A stretch of DNA of 32,000 bases from Aliivibrio fischeri ES114 (GTDB lineage Bacteria; Pseudomonadota; Gammaproteobacteria; Enterobacterales; Vibrionaceae): NCBI RefSeq assembly GCF_000011805.1, contig NC_006840.2. One strand, given 5' to 3'. The notes below the pieces were generated by a model, which saw only the letters and a program-made list of their open reading frames with translations, searched no databases and had not been told where the DNA came from. The position numbers and the translations under genes were made by a program. Below are positions 9,175 to 20,868 of this stretch, in pieces (positions within the stretch are counted from its first letter, which is position 1; each line of letters opens with the position of its first letter).

Positions 9175-10089
9175 TTAGGCCACCTTCACTCTGAACCCGC
9201 CGTTGTTCCATGGCTCTAATACATCTTGCTCATGCAATGCATTTAGAATAATTTTGATTTGCTCTTGTGGCAGGTTAAACGCCGCTTTTAATGCGCGTTG
9301 GCTTGGTTTCACTGTGCCTGACAAAATCGCCTCTTTCACATCATCCATAACACTTGCTGCAAACTGCATTTCAGGCGTTTTATACACTTCAACACTTGGC
9401 ATTACACTTTGAATCACTTGCTTTTCACTTGGTGGCTCAACCCTTGTATTTACTGGGTTTGATACACTTTTTACACTTACTTCAAGTGTATTTAATGAGT
9501 GTAAAGTGAGTGCCATTACTACCGAAACCACTTCTATTGTCACCGCAATAATTAATGTGATTGTCGCATCGTATTCACGCAACATTGAGGTGCTTTTTAC
9601 ACTTGATTGCGCTTCATAAAGTGCGTTTAAGTCATCCGTTACACTTGAGATCATTACTGCAGTTGCTGCCGCGGGTGTCGCGTAATTTATGCGAAGCTGC
9701 TCATCAGATAGTTGCTGCAAATTTGCAAGCTGTTGCTGTTTTAGTTTTATTTGTTCTGTAATGGCTATGTTCTGTTTTGTTGATACTGCCATGTTATCTG
9801 CACCCTTTTCTATCGCAGATATTGAAGCAATGGTGCTGATAACCATCAGAACGCCAGTAAGGGAAACCAGTAAAACAGCAATTAATGGGTTTTGTTTTGC
9901 AACCGTTGGGATAAATGTTGGCGTGATGGTTTTCACTAAATCAAGCGTGATGCCTATCAATGAAAAAATAACCGCAACACCGATGGCTGCGCCCAGCTCG
10001 TTCATGTAAAGGTACGTTAAATAAGCGGATGTAATGGCACATGAGATCAAAACGGATGTGCAAAATAATTTTGATAGTGAATGGTTCAT
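9175..10089 (-). CDS. Multi-pass membrane protein with a central coiled coil and a C-terminal wHTH-like tail, unknown function
   Basis: The 304-aa product has three N-terminal hydrophobic helices, a Q/L-rich coiled segment (IKLKQQQLANLQQLSDEQL), a fourth TM (ITLIIAVTIEVVSVVMALTL) and a soluble C-terminus. Confidence 0.6.
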   Translation of the reverse strand: MNHSLSKLFCTSVLISCAITSAYLTYLYMNELGAAIGVAVIFSLIGITLDLVKTITPTFIPTVAKQNPLIAVLLVSLTGVLMVISTIASISAIEKGADNMAVSTKQNIAITEQIKLKQQQLANLQQLSDEQLRINYATPAAATAVMISSVTDDLNALYEAQSSVKSTSMLREYDATITLIIAVTIEVVSVVMALTLHSLNTLEVSVKSVSNPVNTRVEPPSEKQVIQSVMPSVEVYKTPEMQFAASVMDDVKEAILSGTVKPSQRALKAAFNLPQEQIKIILNALHEQDVLEPWNNGGFRVKVA

Positions 10090-10955: not shown

Positions 10956-13118
10956 CTAATGCAACATCGGGGTTAACTTCCCCTCTAAATAATCAGCAGT
11001 AAAACTCTTCCAGTAATTCACTTCATTTTCATCAGGTTCTATTGGGACTGAATCACACAACACCGCTTGCCAATAAGCCCTTTTATCTTTAAAGCGAACA
11101 TAGTCACTTTGATATAGTTCATCGGCCTCCACTTTTAACTCGGATAAATCCATATCACGGCAATCCATACTCCAACCGCGAGCACCTGCCGCCCACATTA
11201 AAAAATCATCTACTTTTTGCTTGGCATCTTGGCCATCAAATGAAATTGAAAAATTATTCTCCGTTGATACATGCACCTGGCGAGACTTCATTTCCTGTTT
11301 CACTTTTTGAGCTTGCTTCTCTAACCGGATAATGCTGCTCTGCATCTTCTTTAATTTATCTTCAGTGGTACCTGGTTGTTTTGCTGCAATGGCTTTCGCT
11401 TTAATCGTTTGGCTTTTTTGGTAAGACAAGCGATTCAAAGAACGTTCAAGTGGTTTCTTCCATTGTTCTAGTTTGTAGCCCAACTCTTTAATGATTGCCG
11501 TAATGTTATTTGCTTCAAAAGAGGCAATACATTCCCAAGACGGAGCGCGTGAACACTTTGCTATGCTGTAGCGATTACCCTTCACTAAACCTTGGGAAGC
11601 ATCATCACCTTTTGCGGCGTAACCCACGGCTTTAATAATGTAAGTACCAGCGGCTTTTGGCTCACGAATGCGTTCTAACTTTGCAAATCCATGACCCCAT
11701 ATTTTTTCACAACGCATTGCCCAAGCACTGAACAAGTGCGGCTCTACTGTCCACTTCAATAACACATGAACATGAGGGTTTGGCTCACCATCTTCATTCG
11801 CCGGACACTCGGCAACCCAAATATAATGAAAATCGTCTTTAGTGAACGATGGGCCAAACTCAGTAGCCACCGCTTTACAATGAGGTTTTACACTTGCACG
11901 CTTTAAATCACAGTATTGAGCGTTACTTTCTTCATCAACTTGAATCGTATGATCTGCAATCCAACCGCGTTGATACATTTTTTTCAAACCATCCAACAAT
12001 CGAGAGACTTCTTTTCCAATGGTTGTTTCAATGGTTTTCTCAACCGTGAATGCGTTTTTTGGTTTTTCAGACAACAAACAGTAATCACCCATAATTTCAC
12101 GATTCATGTTCATTTCTACTGCGTGGTCTTGGATCTCAATACTGGTGTATGGCCCTGCAATATCACACACAGGTGCGCTGATTTTTCTTTCGTTCTTACC
12201 CGCTTTTCTTGTGATCATATTTCTGCGAAATCGCATCGGGTGATGAGCGCCAACTCTTTCATCAGAAAGCGTGGTGTATTCATCGGTCATGCCACCAAAA
12301 ATTCGTAAACGTTGCGCTTTGTTAAACGTTAACGTTAAGAACGTAGTAAAACCTTCATGGCATGTTGATACATACGCCGCACTAGAAAAAATCTTTGATA
12401 CTGATCTCGCGGTTAATTTCTCAGTAAAGCGTTCACCCACGTTTGCATCTGGCGCACTGCTTGCTGGCGTTTGAGTAATTAACTGCCCACGATATTGACC
12501 GCTCCACTCACGGTGCTGAATTTGAAAAGAAACTGGCGCAAGTTGCGATTCATTCGGATTTTTTTGGCCTTTTTCATTCAAGATAGACGCAGTGCTTCGC
12601 TCCGTAGAGCCGTATAACACGTCATGACTAAAATGCGACTCTGCGGATGCGAGTTCAACCGGATAGCTCGGTCCACGCTTCAGAACGCGCAGAGCGCTGC
12701 GAATTCGCCACTTTCTTGAACTCATCTCCTCTGTCGGACTTTTGCGCCCATTGACTAGGCTATACTCTTCGGCGATTCTCGCCGCCGCTTCGCGGACGTG
12801 TTCTGGTGTTTGATTCAACTTTTCAAAGTGCGCAGTTGAACGTTCAACCTCTATAATGTGTTGAGGTTTTCGGCCTGACACATGATCGTATGACGATGAC
12901 TTTTTATCAGAACCCAAAATACGATCGTAAACAGGTAATTTTTTAACCACACCAGAAGCTAATAGCTCTCTTTCTTGCTCAGAATATGGCTGTTCCTGAA
13001 TTTTTGAACCTAAAAAACCCGCTCGAAAGCAGGCATCATTTTTCTTTGTCTCATCATGAGGGCGTATTGCCCCCATGACATATAAAAGCTCTTTACTAGA
13101 TAAATTACCAGTATTCAC
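10956..13118 (-). CDS. Rolling-circle replication initiator, P2 gpA-like (HUH endonuclease)
   Basis: A 720-aa product with HUH motif NPHVHVLLKW and, downstream, AAGTYIIKAVGYAAKG as a candidate catalytic Tyr helix. Size and position match P2/186 gene A. Confidence 0.75.
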   Translation of the reverse strand: MNTGNLSSKELLYVMGAIRPHDETKKNDACFRAGFLGSKIQEQPYSEQERELLASGVVKKLPVYDRILGSDKKSSSYDHVSGRKPQHIIEVERSTAHFEKLNQTPEHVREAAARIAEEYSLVNGRKSPTEEMSSRKWRIRSALRVLKRGPSYPVELASAESHFSHDVLYGSTERSTASILNEKGQKNPNESQLAPVSFQIQHREWSGQYRGQLITQTPASSAPDANVGERFTEKLTARSVSKIFSSAAYVSTCHEGFTTFLTLTFNKAQRLRIFGGMTDEYTTLSDERVGAHHPMRFRRNMITRKAGKNERKISAPVCDIAGPYTSIEIQDHAVEMNMNREIMGDYCLLSEKPKNAFTVEKTIETTIGKEVSRLLDGLKKMYQRGWIADHTIQVDEESNAQYCDLKRASVKPHCKAVATEFGPSFTKDDFHYIWVAECPANEDGEPNPHVHVLLKWTVEPHLFSAWAMRCEKIWGHGFAKLERIREPKAAGTYIIKAVGYAAKGDDASQGLVKGNRYSIAKCSRAPSWECIASFEANNITAIIKELGYKLEQWKKPLERSLNRLSYQKSQTIKAKAIAAKQPGTTEDKLKKMQSSIIRLEKQAQKVKQEMKSRQVHVSTENNFSISFDGQDAKQKVDDFLMWAAGARGWSMDCRDMDLSELKVEADELYQSDYVRFKDKRAYWQAVLCDSVPIEPDENEVNYWKSFTADYLEGKLTPMLH

Positions 13119-16339: not shown

Positions 16340-16987
16340 ATGGATACATTCGGTTCAAGACTTTTCCACTTAAGAAAAGCAAGAAAACTCACCCAATCAA
16401 GCATTGCCAAGGCATCTGGCGTATCACGTTCATCCGTAACACTATGGGAACAAGATACAAATAAACCGAAAGGCGAAAGTTTGATGGCATTGGCTAGTTT
16501 TCTTAAATGTGATGTGAATTGGCTTTTAACAGGCCAAGGATCTCCCGAACCTGCAAAACAAGAACAAGAAACAACGGTGGTTTCTGTGGCATTAAAACCA
16601 CAAGGCTCTTATCCGGTTATTTCTTGGGTTCAGGCGGGTGGATGGAACGACATTCATTTAACCGATTTGCACGATGCGGATTATTATCCGTGCCCGGTGC
16701 GCTGCAGTAAAAATACGTTTCTGTTAAAAGTGGTTGGTAAAAGCATGAACCCTGTTTTTAGAGAAGGGGAATTGATTTTTGTTGATCCTGATGTAGAAGC
16801 TGTTAATGGCAAGTATGTGGTTGCGCGTTTAGATGACGAGAACCAAGCCACATTCAAGCAGCTTATCATTGAAGATGGTAAGAAGTTTTTACAAGCCGCC
16901 AACCCTGACTGGCCAACCCCGATCATTCCTATTAATGGAAATTGCACAATTGTGGGTGTGGTTATCTCTTCAATGAAATTGTTTTAG
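16340..16987 (+). CDS. cI: CI-type repressor: XRE HTH plus S24 (LexA-like) autopeptidase domain
   Basis: The N-terminal HTH is LTQSSIAKASGVSRSSVTLWEQ. The C-terminal domain has VVGKSMNP (catalytic Ser) and ATFKQL (Lys). Confidence 0.85.
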   Translation: MDTFGSRLFHLRKARKLTQSSIAKASGVSRSSVTLWEQDTNKPKGESLMALASFLKCDVNWLLTGQGSPEPAKQEQETTVVSVALKPQGSYPVISWVQAGGWNDIHLTDLHDADYYPCPVRCSKNTFLLKVVGKSMNPVFREGELIFVDPDVEAVNGKYVVARLDDENQATFKQLIIEDGKKFLQAANPDWPTPIIPINGNCTIVGVVISSMKLF

Positions 16988-17021: not shown

Positions 17022-17303
17022 ATGGAACATGTAACTCAATTAACAAAAAAACACCTCGAAGATTTTTTTGACGATAAACTTCAAGATTATCAATGTCCTT
17101 GCTGTAAATCCAAAGAAAAACCAGCAATTCCAACAGCGAACGATGAAGAAATATCTTTTAGTTTATTGGATTTAGTTGATATAGCTAAAAATAATTCAGA
17201 AAGCAAAAAAGTCTTATCTACACCTGCTTTACCTTTAATTTGCCAGAACTGCGGTAATATTTATAACATTGCGACCTATGTTATTTTACGACATTTTTCA
17301 TAA
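17022..17303 (+). CDS. Small zinc-ribbon protein (93 aa), unknown function
   Basis: Two Cys pairs are present (CPCC ... CQNC). The gene is co-oriented with and 34 nt after cI. Confidence 0.55.
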   Translation: MEHVTQLTKKHLEDFFDDKLQDYQCPCCKSKEKPAIPTANDEEISFSLLDLVDIAKNNSESKKVLSTPALPLICQNCGNIYNIATYVILRHFS

Positions 17304-17314
17304 AAGGCACCGCC

Positions 17315-17656
17315 ATGAATAATAAAGTATCCTTTGTTGATTTCTCCCGTGGTGATAATATCACCGAACAATCAAAGAAAAATGGTAGCGGAGAACCACC
17401 AATGACAACACTAGAACAACGGGTTAGCCATTTAGAAAAAGACACTTCTGAGATAAAAGCAGAAGTAAAACAAACACGTAAAGACCTAATCGACTTTCAA
17501 ATCAAAACGATAGAAGAATTTGGAAAAGTAAGAACGGATGTTGAAAAGGTAAGAACCGAACTACAGACTTCAATGCGACAACAAACCATCTGGCTCTTCG
17601 GCTTAAATGTCACACTGGTTGGAGTTGCGATCGCGGTTATGCGTTTTTTTCCTTAA
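17315..17656 (+). CDS. Tail-anchored coiled-coil membrane protein (113 aa)
   Basis: It has a charged helical region with an internal repeat (KVRTDVEKVRTEL) and one C-terminal TM (IWLFGLNVTLVGVAIAVM). It starts 11 nt after the upstream stop. Confidence 0.6.
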   Translation: MNNKVSFVDFSRGDNITEQSKKNGSGEPPMTTLEQRVSHLEKDTSEIKAEVKQTRKDLIDFQIKTIEEFGKVRTDVEKVRTELQTSMRQQTIWLFGLNVTLVGVAIAVMRFFP

Positions 17657-17702: not shown

Positions 17703-18884
17703 ATGAAAAGACAATTACAAGATAACGATAGAGAGAAAGCAAAAAGAAACATAGCCACATCAAGAAAATACTCAAAAAAAAGAATTTCATTTCAGGGAAA
17801 TGGAGCAACGATTTTTGAGAGACAAACATTCAAAACAATTTTTGGCAAACCTATTCTCCCTGTTCCAACTTGCTTTGATATTACTGAAACCGGGTTAGAT
17901 GATGAATCTGCCCAATTTCTAGCAAATTTAGAAAAGCTATTAATACAACATCCTCATATTTATTTATCATTTGAAAACACCATCTCCATTCGTTTACCTA
18001 TGTTTTTGCTGATATATGCTATTCAAGATAAATACCAATCAAAAATATCGGTTATATGGTCCAAGGGTTCTCAAGAATCAAAATTTGTAAATAGAATGAT
18101 TCGCCACTCTGGTTTTTTTCACTCTATTCAAGTAAGAACAAGTGCTCTTTTTGATAATAACATAAAAGCAATCCCTGTAATCAGTGGGAGTAACCAAGTC
18201 TTTTCTGACCTATCTGAAGACCTTTTAGATGCAATAAAAGAAAAATACTATGATGGTAATATGCCCGCCAAGGTCGAAGCGAAAATATCTCCGGCTATTG
18301 TCGAAACGCTTGAAAATGTAGGACGTCATGCTTACCCCAATGAACCTCTAGATGAAAACAAGAAATGGTGGTTAATTTGCTCTATTAGCCATTATATTCA
18401 CGACCAGAACCCATGCATGTATTTAGCTATTTATGATACAGGAAGAGGTATTCCTTTATCGATAGATGATAGTAAGGTATTTCAGAATAGAGTAAAAACA
18501 TACTATCCTGACGAATACAAAGCATTGATTCAAGGCTATGATGATAGTGGTCCGCAGAGTAAAACACAGGCAGTCAAAGGTTTCATTAACCACGTAAAAA
18601 GTCATTACACTTCACTTGGAGACAGTATCGGTGATTCGGGCTTAATTTATGCTGCTATGATGAACGATATGACACGAATTAATGATAAAAATCATGGACA
18701 AGGTAGTGCATCAATTAAAGATGTTATTACCGATGATTCCGATAGCAAATTGATTATTTTAAGTAATAAAGGGTGCTATCAATACAACAAAGGCCATGAG
18801 AATGAACATACAAAGCTAGAACTACAAAATGAACTATCTGGCACATTATTACAATGGAGCATAAATTTAAATGAACTCACATAA
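17703..18884 (+). CDS. GHKL / histidine-kinase-like ATPase with an unknown N-terminal half (393 aa)
   Basis: Ordered Bergerat motifs are ETLENVGRH (N-box, aa 201-209), YDTGRGIP (G1, aa 244-251), HGQGSASI (G2, aa 331-338) and GT at 380-381. Confidence 0.7.
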   Translation: MKRQLQDNDREKAKRNIATSRKYSKKRISFQGNGATIFERQTFKTIFGKPILPVPTCFDITETGLDDESAQFLANLEKLLIQHPHIYLSFENTISIRLPMFLLIYAIQDKYQSKISVIWSKGSQESKFVNRMIRHSGFFHSIQVRTSALFDNNIKAIPVISGSNQVFSDLSEDLLDAIKEKYYDGNMPAKVEAKISPAIVETLENVGRHAYPNEPLDENKKWWLICSISHYIHDQNPCMYLAIYDTGRGIPLSIDDSKVFQNRVKTYYPDEYKALIQGYDDSGPQSKTQAVKGFINHVKSHYTSLGDSIGDSGLIYAAMMNDMTRINDKNHGQGSASIKDVITDDSDSKLIILSNKGCYQYNKGHENEHTKLELQNELSGTLLQWSINLNELT

Positions 18885-19221
18885 AACAATACCCGTGACC
18901 ACCGAGTTTCATCCAAGACCTAAAGGCCGTTATGCTAAAGATGCACCTGGTTGTGAAAAATCATCTGGAGAAGTATTTCGAAAGCAATGTTTAGTTCCGG
19001 CTTTAAGAGAATTCGATTCCGTATTAGTAGATCTCACAGGATATAACCGCTATGGGCGCTCTTTTCTTGATGAGGCATTTGGTGGGCTAATCTCAAGAGA
19101 ACACTTTACTAAAGCTGAATTAGATAAAAAACTAACGGTAAAACATGACGATGTTGAGAGCTTTATTAGCATTATTAATGAACGCATTATATCTGCAGAA
19201 GAAAACCGACTTAAAGAATGA
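18871..19221 (+). CDS. STAS-like protein (DUF4325-type), 116 aa
   Basis: KGRYAKD..SGEVFRKQCLVPAL...VLVDLTGYNRYGRSFLDEAFGGLI fits the remembered DUF4325 consensus. Its start overlaps the ATPase gene by 14 nt. Confidence 0.65.
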   Translation: MNSHKTIPVTTEFHPRPKGRYAKDAPGCEKSSGEVFRKQCLVPALREFDSVLVDLTGYNRYGRSFLDEAFGGLISREHFTKAELDKKLTVKHDDVESFISIINERIISAEENRLKE

Positions 19222-19823
19222 CAGAACTTTTTCAATCAATTCCCTTTGAATGGGTTTTTATTACTTGGGTTCTTAGCTTAATTGTTCACCATCATGGATT
19301 AAAAAGAACTTCAATAACTAAAACAAAGGATGACTTAACAAGCTTACTCTCCGCTCTCCCTGACTTTAAATGGATAGATGATTATGAAAACACTTTGTAT
19401 TTAGAGGAAATTTATAACAATAAGGTCAACAACATACGGTGGAAGTTAAAGCAATTAAATAAATTAGCATCGATAGAGCTTCTTTCTGATGCTGATTTAA
19501 ATCCGTTACACAACTTTAATATTGAGAGTTATATCACGCGCCACTTTGATAAAAGAAAAAGGCATATTTCACGTAATACCCAAGAAAATGAAACTAGAAG
19601 ATATGAACTACAAGAGATTTGCAACTCACTTATAGATACTCTTGAGAAGCATCATTTCAATAAAATCACCTCTTCAAAATTATTTATCTTTTGGTCAATT
19701 AGGTATTCTTTTCCTTTAAAAGTCATATATGTCGCTTTAATCATATCTTTGTTAGCGATTGGGTTGATATTTATTGCAGGTATCCTTCACATTTTCAATT
19801 ACTCTTTATTGCTAAGAGTCTAA
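19218..19823 (+). CDS. Membrane protein with N- and C-terminal hydrophobic segments (201 aa), unknown function
   Basis: It shares an ATGA overlap with the STAS-like gene. TM candidates are FEWVFITWVLSLIVHH and VIYVALIISLLAIGLIFIAGILHIF, around a charged central region. Confidence 0.6.
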   Translation: MTELFQSIPFEWVFITWVLSLIVHHHGLKRTSITKTKDDLTSLLSALPDFKWIDDYENTLYLEEIYNNKVNNIRWKLKQLNKLASIELLSDADLNPLHNFNIESYITRHFDKRKRHISRNTQENETRRYELQEICNSLIDTLEKHHFNKITSSKLFIFWSIRYSFPLKVIYVALIISLLAIGLIFIAGILHIFNYSLLLRV

Positions 19824-19840: not shown

Positions 19841-19868
19841 AATGCTGCCCTAATAACCGGGCAGCATT
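19841..19868 (+). terminator. Perfect 10-bp stem hairpin between the accessory island and int, with no U-tract (weak or atypical terminator or processing site)
   Basis: The hairpin is aatgctgccc-taataacc-gggcagcatt, followed by tacac. Confidence 0.35.
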
Positions 19869-19890: not shown

Positions 19891-20868
19891 ATGTCTATAA
19901 GAAAACAACCAAACGGCAAGTATCTTGTTGAAATTTACCTACCGAATAAAAAACGCATCCGAAAAACCTTTGCTACCCAAAGCGAAGCGAAACGCTTTGA
20001 ACAATTTACGCAAACGGAATCCATTCAAAAACCGTGGATGCCAGCAAAAGACGATAACCGTACACTCAATGAATTAATAGAATTGTGGTATGGGTTACAT
20101 GGCCAAGCATTAAGTGATGGCCCCAAACGAAAAAACAAACTGCTCGCCATGTCTCTTATGATGAAAAACCCAATTGCAAGAGAGATTACCGCGAGCGATT
20201 TTTCAAAGTATCGCCAACTGCGTATTGAAACCGTTTCAATCAAAACAGCCAATAATGATCAAACTTATCTCAACGCATTATTTAATGAATTAAAACGCCT
20301 TGGCGAATGGAACTACAATAATCCACTCGCAGAACTGAGGGCATTAAAATACAAACAACCTGAAATGGGGTTTTTAACAAGCGAAGAGATCACACTTGTT
20401 TTTGATGAATTAGAAAAGTGCCGCAACTTTGATGCGTACTTAATTTCTAAAATATGCATATCAACGGGTTGTCGTTGGGGTGAAGCGGAATCATTAACCA
20501 GCACACAACTCACGCCGCACCGGATCACTTTCACTCATACAAAAGGTAATAAGCACAGAACCGTTCCTATCAGTAAAGAACTCTACGAAGAACTACCAAA
20601 AAAGAACGGCCGTTTATTTAGCAATTGTATTAAGTCTTTTAAAATGGCTGTAAATCGGACGGGAGTTCAACTCCCTAAAGGGCAATCAACTCACGTATTA
20701 CGTCACACGTTTGCGAGTCATTTTATGATGAATGGAGGTAATATTTTGGTGTTACAACAGATTCTCGGCCATGCTAGTATCACTGACACAATGAAGTATG
20801 CACACTTTTCACCAGCGCACTTAGAAGATGCTATTAAGCTAAACCCACTCGCCAAAAATGGCGGTTAA
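19891..20868 (+). CDS. int: Tyrosine recombinase / phage integrase
   Basis: The catalytic set is visible: CRWGEAESL (Arg), HVLRHTFASH (H-x-x-R) and GHASITDTMKYAH (His...Tyr). The N-terminal arm-binding-type motif is NGKYLVEIYLPNKKRIRKTF. Confidence 0.9.
   Translation: MSIRKQPNGKYLVEIYLPNKKRIRKTFATQSEAKRFEQFTQTESIQKPWMPAKDDNRTLNELIELWYGLHGQALSDGPKRKNKLLAMSLMMKNPIAREITASDFSKYRQLRIETVSIKTANNDQTYLNALFNELKRLGEWNYNNPLAELRALKYKQPEMGFLTSEEITLVFDELEKCRNFDAYLISKICISTGCRWGEAESLTSTQLTPHRITFTHTKGNKHRTVPISKELYEELPKKNGRLFSNCIKSFKMAVNRTGVQLPKGQSTHVLRHTFASHFMMNGGNILVLQQILGHASITDTMKYAHFSPAHLEDAIKLNPLAKNGG

Follow-up and report, generated by a model that had tools for sequence, protein, structure and literature searches.

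What do three overlapping genes, placed between the repressor and the integrase of a prophage of Aliivibrio fischeri ES114, provide to the phage or to its host? The genes lie in a stretch of 32,000 nucleotides (hereafter, the window), where a first-pass annotation had seen in them a possible module of abortive infection or superinfection exclusion. What it observed is confirmed, and what it made of the observation is partly supported by the comparisons described below.

Layout and mobility of the trio

The three genes, here called A, B and C, belong to a myovirus-type prophage and share their strand with the cI-like repressor gene and the integrase gene that enclose them:

16340..16987, + strand: cI-like repressor (HTH_3 and Peptidase_S24, by Pfam), upstream of the trio
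17703..18884, + strand: gene A, 393 aa, matching VF_2039 of A. fischeri ES114 at 100% identity
18871..19221, + strand: gene B, 116 aa, DUF4325 STAS-like protein
19218..19823, + strand: gene C, 201 aa, predicted membrane-anchored, all-helical protein and candidate effector
19891..20868, + strand: tyrosine integrase of the P2/HP1 type (Pfam Int_N and Phage_integrase), directly downstream of the trio, at the prophage end

Coordinates, lengths and overlaps of the three reading frames are exactly those given in the first-pass annotation. The junctions, read directly, consist of a 14 nt overlap between A and B and of an ATGA shared by B and C at positions 19218-19221; B starts within A, with its ATG at 18871 and a GGAG 11 nt before it, and the stop codon of A is the TAA in 18882-18884. 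The GC content of the trio is below that of the prophage body. The integrase gene shows DNA similarity to the integrase genes of HP1 and HP2, and no tRNA was found adjoining it. Upstream of this gene there is a hairpin devoid of a U-tract and otherwise no clear terminator, while a scan for promoters and terminators returned sites no commoner than in shuffled sequence. A literature search for VF_2039-2041 returned nothing.

The association of the three genes extends well beyond this prophage. Among 69 independent related loci, A is present in 68, B in 67 and the third gene in 63; B lies directly downstream of A in 67 loci and the order A-B-C is kept in 63-67, which makes the association more than a matter of chance. 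The junctions across loci are mostly overlaps or gaps of at most 5 nt, and the third genes form one homologous set by hhalign (96%, E 1.2e-9), with 54 out of 66 falling in one phmmer cluster. The two genes upstream of the trio, initially counted with it as a five-gene island, lack homologues throughout the 69 loci, and the island is accordingly reduced to the trio.

The neighbourhood survey also bore out the expected linkage of the homologues in mobile contexts. The trio is carried by 49 viral contigs of IMG/VR, and an integrase or a cI-like gene is found in the flanks of 46 of the 69 loci, including 16 of the 20 loci from genomes. Moreover, the isolated Marinobacter phage AS1 carries the trio in its immunity region, next to the repressor, and the Francisella phage KIRK shows the same layout, again next to the repressor; the trio has also been found on a conjugative Vibrio plasmid and in some loci with no detectable repressor or integrase. 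The three genes move as one cassette, found in unrelated prophages, on a plasmid and in many genera, and these observations support the view that A, B and C are an obligate, tightly coupled unit of prophages and plasmids.

The kinase-like protein A and its DUF4325 partner B

Gene A is predicted, from alignments and from its structural model, to encode a protein in which a STAS-like domain is joined to a GHKL kinase domain, an architecture resembling that of the kinases VapK and CapK, and gene B to encode a small STAS-like protein with a single candidate site of phosphorylation:

17847..18191, + strand: STAS-like domain of A, residues ~49-163 (AF2 secondary-structure order, Foldseek, Pfam STAS in the family)
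18192..18872, + strand: GHKL (Bergerat-fold) ATP-binding/kinase domain of A, residues ~164-390 (family invariants, fold matches, HATPase_c)
19060..19062, + strand: codon of Ser64 of B, predicted phospho-acceptor (family invariance, profile alignment to VapS Ser48)

The GHKL motifs of A follow one another in the canonical order, with the N-box E201/N205/H209, the G1 box D245-x-G-x-G-I-P, the G2 box H331-G-Q-G-S335 and the G3 box G380-T381. These motifs, already noticed in the first reading, have residues (E201, N205, H209, D245, G247, G249, H331-G-Q-G-S335, G380 and T381) that are invariant or nearly so in a 30-sequence alignment of the A family and remain invariant once VapK and CapK join it, a pattern which indicates that the motifs are genuine and under selection and that the ATP-binding site is intact. 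The A protein of the window has no Pfam match at E<=1, and the signal emerges from its family: 18 of 30 members match HATPase_c (best E 7.6e-5) and 16 of 30 match HATPase_c_2 (best E 3e-4), mostly below the gathering scores, and 6 of 30 match Pfam STAS. A also matches phrog_3364 at 8.7e-42, and the profile of its family finds 2,794 library clusters at E<=1e-3, counted at 50% identity.

The AlphaFold (AF2) model of A (pLDDT 81.7) gives fold matches that are weak but coherent, with HtpG/Hsp90, GyrB and the CA domains of histidine kinases, and the SiaB–SiaC complex (6kko) is among them. The first 190 residues had initially been considered unrecognisable; this can be revised, as residues ~49-163 form the STAS-like domain, which in Foldseek matches the STAS anti-sigma antagonist TM1442 (1vc1; prob 0.99, TMt 0.56), can be aligned with its counterparts in VapK and CapK and is preceded in the model by a basic helix and a beta-hairpin. 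Since no Ser or Thr occurs at the start of its helix alpha2, this domain is probably not itself a phospho-acceptor.

The recognition of B as a DUF4325 protein is upheld by Pfam (PF14213; E 5.6e-15, 55.3 bits vs a cut-off of 23, residues 32-94), and alignments indicate a true, VapS-like member of the family. Its Ser64 is invariant in 33/33 B-family sequences, within the motif G-x-S-F-L-x-E-A-F-G-G-L, and falls on VapS Ser48 in the profile alignment; within its 116 aa there is no HTH or other DNA-binding domain. B is predicted to act as kinase substrate and adaptor. Searches of A and B against PDB sequences, with single sequences and with profiles, gave nothing meaningful, and the deposited VapS and CapS entries were not matched.

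In the partner-switching modules SpoIIAB/SpoIIAA, RsbW/RsbV and SiaB/SiaC, the GHKL serine kinase places a phosphate on a serine of its STAS-fold partner, at the start of helix alpha2, and so alters the choice of protein to which this partner binds. The trio resembles these modules in pairing a GHKL kinase with a STAS-like partner and in the fold matches of A to 1vc1 and 6kko, so that A and B could be regarded as a classical anti-sigma and anti-anti-sigma pair (of the SpoIIAB/SpoIIAA or RsbW/RsbV type) controlling a sigma factor; the HATPase_c_2-like N-box seen in 16 of the 30 A-family members and the conserved serine of the STAS-like partner would agree with this. Nevertheless, no gene for a sigma factor or a PP2C phosphatase was found among the open reading frames at 16-21 kb of the window, and a diguanylate cyclase target is likewise missing from the trio. 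Furthermore, A has 393 aa and a STAS domain of its own, whereas a single-domain anti-sigma factor has ~150 aa, B is a DUF4325 and not a canonical STAS protein, and the conserved third partner is a membrane protein. Classical sigma-factor partner switching, highly improbable on these grounds, has been rejected for a locus with neither sigma factor nor phosphatase. The kinase–STAS switch proposed in the first-pass annotation now has a direct precedent, established by experiment, in VapKSC and CapKS, while the sigma-factor switches of SpoIIAB and RsbW are left as a distant analogy only.

Relationship to VapKSC and CapKS

VapKSC consists of VapK, a STAS-GHKL kinase, VapS, a STAS/DUF4325 antitoxin, and VapC, a PIN toxin (Chambers et al., EMBO J 2026, PMC13373217). 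VapS acts as the antitoxin; its Ser48 is the predicted phospho-acceptor, tested genetically by S48E and S48A, and S48E releases the toxin, while the whole system protects against a phage by about 2 logs (PMC13373217). In the related CapK–CapS pair, a DNA-damage-activated kinase, shown to phosphorylate CapS, is combined with a STAS-wHTH repressor that controls CBASS, Bub and other immune operons (PMC13373217). Both CapK and VapK respond to DNA damage, the signal being single-stranded DNA, and aromatic residues (VapK F54, CapK W68) have been implicated in its sensing (PMC13373217). Apart from this study and its preprint, no literature on kinase–STAS toxin–antitoxin systems was found; the published vapKSC list, defined by VapC, does not include A. 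fischeri (PMC13373217).

The trio shares with VapKSC the organisation as a three-gene operon in the order kinase, small STAS protein and third gene, the mobile or defence contexts and the fusion of STAS to GHKL in the kinase, A being collinear with residues 27-285 of VapK. The hhalign comparison of A with VapK reaches E 6.8e-5 over 251 columns, across both domains; VapK scores 13.5 bits (E 1.6e-6) with the A-family HMM, below the library threshold, and VapS 16.8 bits (E 2.5e-7) with the B-family HMM, while CapK and CapS score lower (6.7 and 1.8 bits, respectively). VapS matches Pfam DUF4325 at E 2.7e-17, and VapK itself lies under the Pfam HATPase cut-off (23.4 bits vs 26.4). VapS and B are both DUF4325 proteins of 116 aa with an aligned conserved serine and a C-terminal helical extension that runs ~20-40 residues past the domain.

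There are also differences. The third gene encodes a membrane-anchored helical protein here and a PIN nuclease there; A is longer by an N-terminal basic helix and beta-hairpin (~50 aa) and, in the ATP-lid region, by an insertion of ~60 aa; and it belongs to a separate large sequence family, that of the 2,794 clusters, with remote homology to VapK. In the alignment of the A family, the column of VapK F54 (S95 in A) varies among S/E/V/L/W/H/R/T/Y, so that this residue is apparently not conserved, and the column of CapK W68 is variable as well. Since no PIN match was found and C is predicted to be an all-helical membrane protein, the trio is not a member of VapKSC. By sequence comparison VapKSC is nonetheless the closest known system, of which the trio represents a variant rather than a wholly new kind.

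With CapKS the trio has in common a STAS-GHKL kinase followed directly by a STAS protein with a conserved phospho-serine, and CapK and the A family share a 'YPE' motif just past the G1 box (Y268-P269 in A). CapK, however, has an N-terminal HTH where A has a single basic helix plus beta-hairpin, CapS is a wHTH repressor while B has no DNA-binding domain, and downstream of the trio there are just C and the integrase in place of an immune operon. Transcriptional regulation of the CapKS type was rejected for the lack of a DNA-binding domain in B.

The first-pass annotation could place the trio in no named defence family. This holds for the catalogues, as the defence models of PADLOC-DB v2.0.0 gave no match to A, B or C at E<=1 and those of NCBIfam and Pfam gave none either, but it has to be qualified by the remote homology of A and B to VapKSC.

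The responses of CapK and VapK to DNA damage also bear on a possible role of the trio in the life cycle of the phage itself, in which a damage-activated kinase switch beside cI would translate DNA damage or induction into an event at the membrane, for example early membrane permeabilisation, the timing of lysis, or a block of re-adsorption or superinfection during induction. The position of the trio between a self-cleaving (S24) cI and int, on the same strand and with no clear terminator before int, is compatible with such a role, as is the repressor-adjacent position in AS1, KIRK and many other loci. On the other hand, a conjugative plasmid carries the cassette too, as do loci in which neither repressor nor integrase was detected, the trigger residues of CapK and VapK are not conserved in the A family, and the cargo of immunity regions expressed in lysogens is typically defensive, as in the case of lambda rexAB and P2 old/tin/fun. 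A function in the phage life cycle is thus considered quite improbable.

The membrane protein C and the proposed switch

The hydrophobic ends and charged core first noticed in C are found both in the hydropathy profile and in the AF2 model (pLDDT 79.7), which is all-helical, with a charged helical core enclosed by hydrophobic helices at both ends, the C-terminal one strongly hydrophobic:

19239..19298, + strand: N-terminal hydrophobic (TM) helix of C (hydropathy; AF2 helix 8-46)
19677..19817, + strand: C-terminal hydrophobic helix of C, residues 154-200 (hydropathy; AF2 helix 154-200)

On this model, C is anchored in the membrane and built of helices only, and its fold resembles none that is known. 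The N-terminal helix of the window protein is only moderately hydrophobic (maximum KD15 1.25); it contains the family-conserved W17, followed by the basic K29, R30, K35 and K37, and W17 and R30 are nearly invariant in the alignment of the C family. The basic residues after this first TM would place the helical domain in the cytoplasm, within possible reach of B. The C-terminal helix reaches a Kyte-Doolittle hydropathy of 2.8, and a C-terminal TM is present in 29 of 66 members of the family and absent from about half, conservation being limited to the N-terminal anchor and the soluble bundle of helices.

No family match to C was found in Pfam, PADLOC or NCBIfam, and the sole Pfam hint for the C family is Saf_2TM in one distant member (L062; E 0.001). 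Fold searches against the PDB and viral structures gave nothing below E 0.05, with generic helical bundles only, and no similarity to a known toxin, pore or effector was found. A PIN nuclease was matched neither in C nor in any of the 42 third-gene products scanned. The literature search for a link between DUF4325 and a membrane protein found none.

The reading preferred here, with a probability of about 0.55, is that the trio is a phospho-switched toxin–antitoxin or abortive-infection module in which a membrane effector takes the place of the PIN nuclease of VapKSC; its role in defence, exclusion or toxicity is inferred. In the lysogen, the trio would be expressed from the immunity region along with cI, and unphosphorylated B would bind the cytoplasmic helical domain of C and hold C inactive. 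An infection or stress signal would activate A, which would then phosphorylate B at Ser64, so that B would release C; free C may oligomerise in the inner membrane or perturb it, leading to a collapse of membrane potential or permeability, by which the infection would be aborted or a superinfecting phage excluded, in the way of RexB under RexA. RexA and RexB of lambda are encoded next to cI and expressed in the lysogen, and there a sensor in the cytoplasm governs a protein of the inner membrane which, once activated, aborts the infection. The likeness, namely prophage genes beside cI and a membrane protein under cytoplasmic control, is a functional analogy only, as no relationship of sequence or fold was detected and Rex has no kinase or STAS component.

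Several observations count against this reading: C has no similarity to known effectors, its N-terminal helix is only moderately hydrophobic in the window protein and about half of its family has no C-terminal TM; A and B are but remote homologues of VapK and VapS; the aromatics implicated in ssDNA sensing vary in the A family; and the scan for promoters and terminators gave no site above chance. The features of C can be accommodated by a different arrangement, a signalling relay in which C, instead of being toxic, would serve as anchor or sensor in the inner membrane. There it would report phage DNA injection, envelope stress or a loss of proton-motive force and thereby control A, and B, phosphorylated or not, would act on a target whose gene lies outside the trio, in the prophage or the host. 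C has indeed no toxin- or pore-like fold, its second TM is dispensable, and the A family, having no counterpart of the ssDNA-sensing aromatic of VapK and CapK, could plausibly receive a different input. STAS partner-switching modules, moreover, classically signal to remote targets, RsbV/RsbW and SiaB/SiaC being examples. Dependence on an external target, specific to host or phage, is nevertheless made less likely by the spread of the genes as a self-contained cassette over many genera, on a plasmid and in prophages unrelated to one another, and the third gene is the effector in VapKSC, the nearest characterised relative. A sensor role of C therefore seems rather unlikely.

Returning to the phospho-switched module with C as effector, it can be tentatively extended to a large unnamed family of prophage and plasmid defence or exclusion systems, in which a VapK-like kinase would phosphorylate a DUF4325 protein and so unleash a new membrane effector in response to a trigger other than ssDNA. 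Such a trigger is suggested by the variability at the sensing aromatic together with the basic N-terminal extension that A has of its own.

If this proposal is true, the kinase–STAS phospho-switch of VapKSC and CapKS would be a general modular trigger, its output in this case being a membrane effector and in the others a nuclease or a repressor. Of the two, the membrane version seems to form the larger family, as judged from the clusters found at E<=1e-3 (2,794), and prophage immunity regions of Vibrio, Shewanella, Pseudomonas, Pasteurellaceae, Enterobacterales, Marinobacter and Francisella typically carry it. The defence catalogues would gain an unannotated system, on whose A and C components PADLOC, Pfam and NCBIfam are silent, and the proposal would give a function to DUF4325 proteins outside PIN operons. 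In A. fischeri ES114, VF_2039 and the two genes downstream of it would then offer a tractable case of a STAS protein restraining a membrane protein.

A gene trio between repressor and integrase

Three plus-strand ORFs, here called A, B and C, lie in a myovirus-type prophage with tail-fibre, baseplate, exonuclease and cII-like genes on the minus strand of its left arm. A and Aliivibrio fischeri ES114 VF_2039 share 100% identity. The lengths and overlaps of the ORFs are exactly those of the first-pass annotation, the junctions having been read directly from the DNA: B begins at an ATG 14 nt within A, with a GGAG 11 nt 5' of it, and B and C have in common the ATGA at 19218-19221.

Features of the repressor–integrase region (window coordinates)
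16340..16987, plus strand: cI-like repressor (HTH + S24)
17022-17303, plus strand: CpXC-like zinc-ribbon gene, between cI and the trio (Pfam, 27.9 bits)
17315-17656, plus strand: gene for a coiled-coil protein with a C-terminal TM, between cI and the trio (phrog_3556, E 1.6e-12)
17703..18884, plus strand: A, ORF of 393 aa
about 18504-18509: Y-P-(E/D) motif of A (residues 268-269)
18871..19221, plus strand: B, ORF of 116 aa
19218..19823, plus strand: C, ORF of 201 aa
19891..20868, plus strand: P2/HP1-type integrase
from 21197: host chemoreceptor gene, next after the integrase

The GC content at 17-20 kb is 0.335-0.357 versus 0.40-0.43 in the prophage body, a low value that is typical of acquired cargo and consistent with separate acquisition. 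Between the C stop (19823) and the int start (19891) there is a strong plus-strand hairpin at 19841-19868 (10-bp stem AAUGCUGCCC/GGGCAGCAUU, 8-nt loop; dG -17.7 kcal/mol, z -4.19) with no U-tract after it, which could be an atypical terminator or an int regulatory site. Elsewhere in the prophage, a 720-aa ORF (10956-13118, minus strand) has phrog_38601, of unknown function, as its sole match (E 5e-132), and the adjoining 304-aa ORF (9175-10089, minus strand) has zero PHROG matches.

Conservation of the trio was surveyed in 69 loci (20 from genomes, 49 from IMG/VR viral contigs) that encode relatives of A with 20-60% identity and whose six-frame ORFs were searched with iterated HMMs. A was recovered in 68/69 loci and a B-type DUF4325 gene directly downstream of it in 67/69, the remaining two ending at a contig edge; a third gene of ~150-230 aa follows B in 63/69, and the great majority of junctions are overlaps or gaps of at most 5 nt. 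The zinc-ribbon and coiled-coil/TM genes, which had been grouped with the trio as a five-gene island, have homologues in none of the 69 loci; the unit therefore consists of three genes, not five, and the two upstream genes appear to be lineage-specific cargo of unknown function. A frameshift that splits B in a viral contig (L021:7840-8191) and a C gene in two pieces in Avibacterium gallinarum (L018:9330-9874) suggest that the cassette occasionally decays.

A predicted kinase and a STAS protein resembling VapK and VapS

A alone matches nothing in Pfam, NCBIfam, PADLOC or the PDB sequences; it falls in phrog_3364, a phage protein family without known function, and has 88 database homologues. When 30 family members are scanned singly, HATPase_c is found in 18, HATPase_c_2 in 16 and STAS in 6. 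The Bergerat motifs recognized in the first pass are borne out by the 30-sequence alignment, in which E201, N205, H209, D245, G247, G249, H331-G-Q-G-S335 and G380 are invariant. In the AlphaFold2 model (pLDDT 81.7, pTM 0.79) a basic N-terminal helix and a beta-hairpin are followed by a beta-alpha-beta-alpha-beta-alpha unit (residues ~49-163) and an alpha/beta sandwich bearing the ATP motifs. Foldseek matches to the PDB are weak (best E 8.7e-3) yet form a coherent set, comprising Hsp90/HtpG N-domains, GyrB, histidine-kinase CA domains, the STAS anti-sigma antagonist TM1442 (prob 0.99) and the SiaB–SiaC kinase–STAS complex. Together this indicates that A joins a STAS-like domain to a GHKL domain of the kinase type, and that residues 1-190, previously described as unrecognizable, are mostly the STAS domain.

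B scores 55 bits against DUF4325, where the cut-off is 23, and clearly belongs to it, as had been proposed in the first pass; R20, G33, S64, F65, E68 and G72 are invariant in 33 sequences of its family. Its residues 2-105 also match positions 337-434 of the 441 of phrog_5816; some phages may therefore have long proteins that end in a DUF4325 domain, possibly kinase–STAS fusions.

The nearest characterized systems, CapK/CapS and VapKSC, have both been described recently (Chambers et al., EMBO J 2026; PMC13373217). CapK is an ssDNA-activated HTH-STAS-GHKL kinase that phosphorylates CapS, a STAS-wHTH repressor, at Ser54. VapKSC, found in 289 instances and protecting by ~2 logs against one phage, combines a STAS-GHKL kinase (VapK) with a STAS antitoxin of 116 aa (VapS) and a PIN toxin (VapC). 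The conserved Ser48 of VapS was tested genetically: with S48E, VapS no longer binds VapC or acts as an antitoxin, and with S48A, protection against phage is lost; phosphorylation by VapK comes from modelling, not assay (PMC13373217). The sequences of these proteins were taken from the supplementary files of that paper and checked against its published residue numbers. VapS is itself a DUF4325 protein (E 2.7e-17), which explains an older literature note on a PIN clade "transcriptionally coupled to DUF4325 genes".

Against the B-family profile VapS scores 16.8 bits (E 2.5e-7), with Ser48 aligned to Ser64 of B; against the A-family profile VapK scores 13.5 bits (E 1.6e-6), the profile aligning over 251 columns that span both domains (E 6.8e-5). 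CapK and CapS score lower (6.7 and 1.8 bits). A and B are therefore remote homologues of VapK and VapS and correspond to them in architecture. The ATP site of this VapK-like kinase is intact, and its VapS-like partner carries an invariant serine. We give a probability of about 0.8 to A and B being kinase and substrate in the manner of VapKS; that they instead form a classical sigma-factor partner switch is highly improbable. A Y-P-(E/D) motif just past the G1 box is conserved in the A family and in CapK ("KKHYPEIF") and absent from VapK, so that A mixes features of both kinases.

Even so, the trio does not belong to VapKSC. Its third gene does not encode a PIN nuclease, no PIN match being detected in C or the third-gene products scanned; VapK lies far beyond the detection range of the A family; A has additional N-terminal and ATP-lid segments; and the columns matching VapK F54 and CapK W68, two residues with an implied role in ssDNA sensing, vary across the A family. 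The paper describing VapKSC names no membrane effector and defines its vapKSC list by VapC (PMC13373217), and among the papers searched there was no other on such a system or on VF_2039-2041.

The membrane protein and the proposed switch

C has no family match in Pfam, NCBIfam or PADLOC, and fold searches (PDB, viral models) returned only generic helical bundles. Its AlphaFold2 model is all-helical (pLDDT 79.7): helix 8-46, with a hydrophobic start containing the family-conserved W17 and then a basic stretch, leads into a helical bundle, and the C-terminal helix (154-200) is strongly hydrophobic. Basic residues follow TM1 and put the helical domain on the cytoplasmic side, where it could be reached by B. 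What the third-gene products conserve is a core made up of the N-terminal hydrophobic helix and the helical domain, a C-terminal TM being present in only 29/66. The third genes evolve fast but are homologous: those of close and distant clades align with an hhalign probability of 96% (E 1.2e-9; one sequence is common to both alignments) and 54/66 fall in one phmmer single-linkage cluster. The linkage of A and B to this membrane-anchored helical protein is obligate.

By analogy with VapKSC, B would keep C inactive until an infection or stress signal switches A on; A would then phosphorylate Ser64 of B, which would let C go, and the freed C may perturb the inner membrane, so that infection is aborted or excluded. 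This mechanism would functionally resemble RexA/RexB beside lambda cI. We lean slightly towards this complete effector scheme; that C is instead a membrane sensor or anchor and not a toxin seems unlikely. The first-pass annotation, which had proposed a candidate defence or exclusion system, holds in its observations and in part in its interpretation. The trio is best read as a variant of the recently described kinase–STAS phospho-switch in which the third component is a membrane protein.

Distribution in mobile elements

The neighbourhood survey, suggested in the first pass, revealed an integrase or cI-like gene in the flanks of 46/69 loci, including 16/20 genome loci. The trio adjoins Cro/CI genes in the isolated Marinobacter phage AS1 (AS1_41/40/39, with 4-nt overlaps; L070) and is also present on pVS127, a conjugative plasmid of Vibrio scophthalmi; its carriers are a plasmid as well as prophages, where it sits in the immunity region. 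This setting could also suit a module for prophage induction or lysis rather than defence, a reading that we regard as rather improbable. In the published gene table of Francisella phage KIRK, Fhv_0046-0048 form a kinase–DUF4325–small protein trio between cI and integrase. The AS1 and KIRK genes, beside the repressor genes of isolated temperate phages, are all annotated as hypothetical, and these phages would be convenient experimental systems. At E<=1e-3 an exhaustive profile search gave 2,794 A-like clusters (50% identity), and at E<=1e-10 it gave 1,891. The trio represents a large, unannotated and mobile family that is well worth experimental follow-up.
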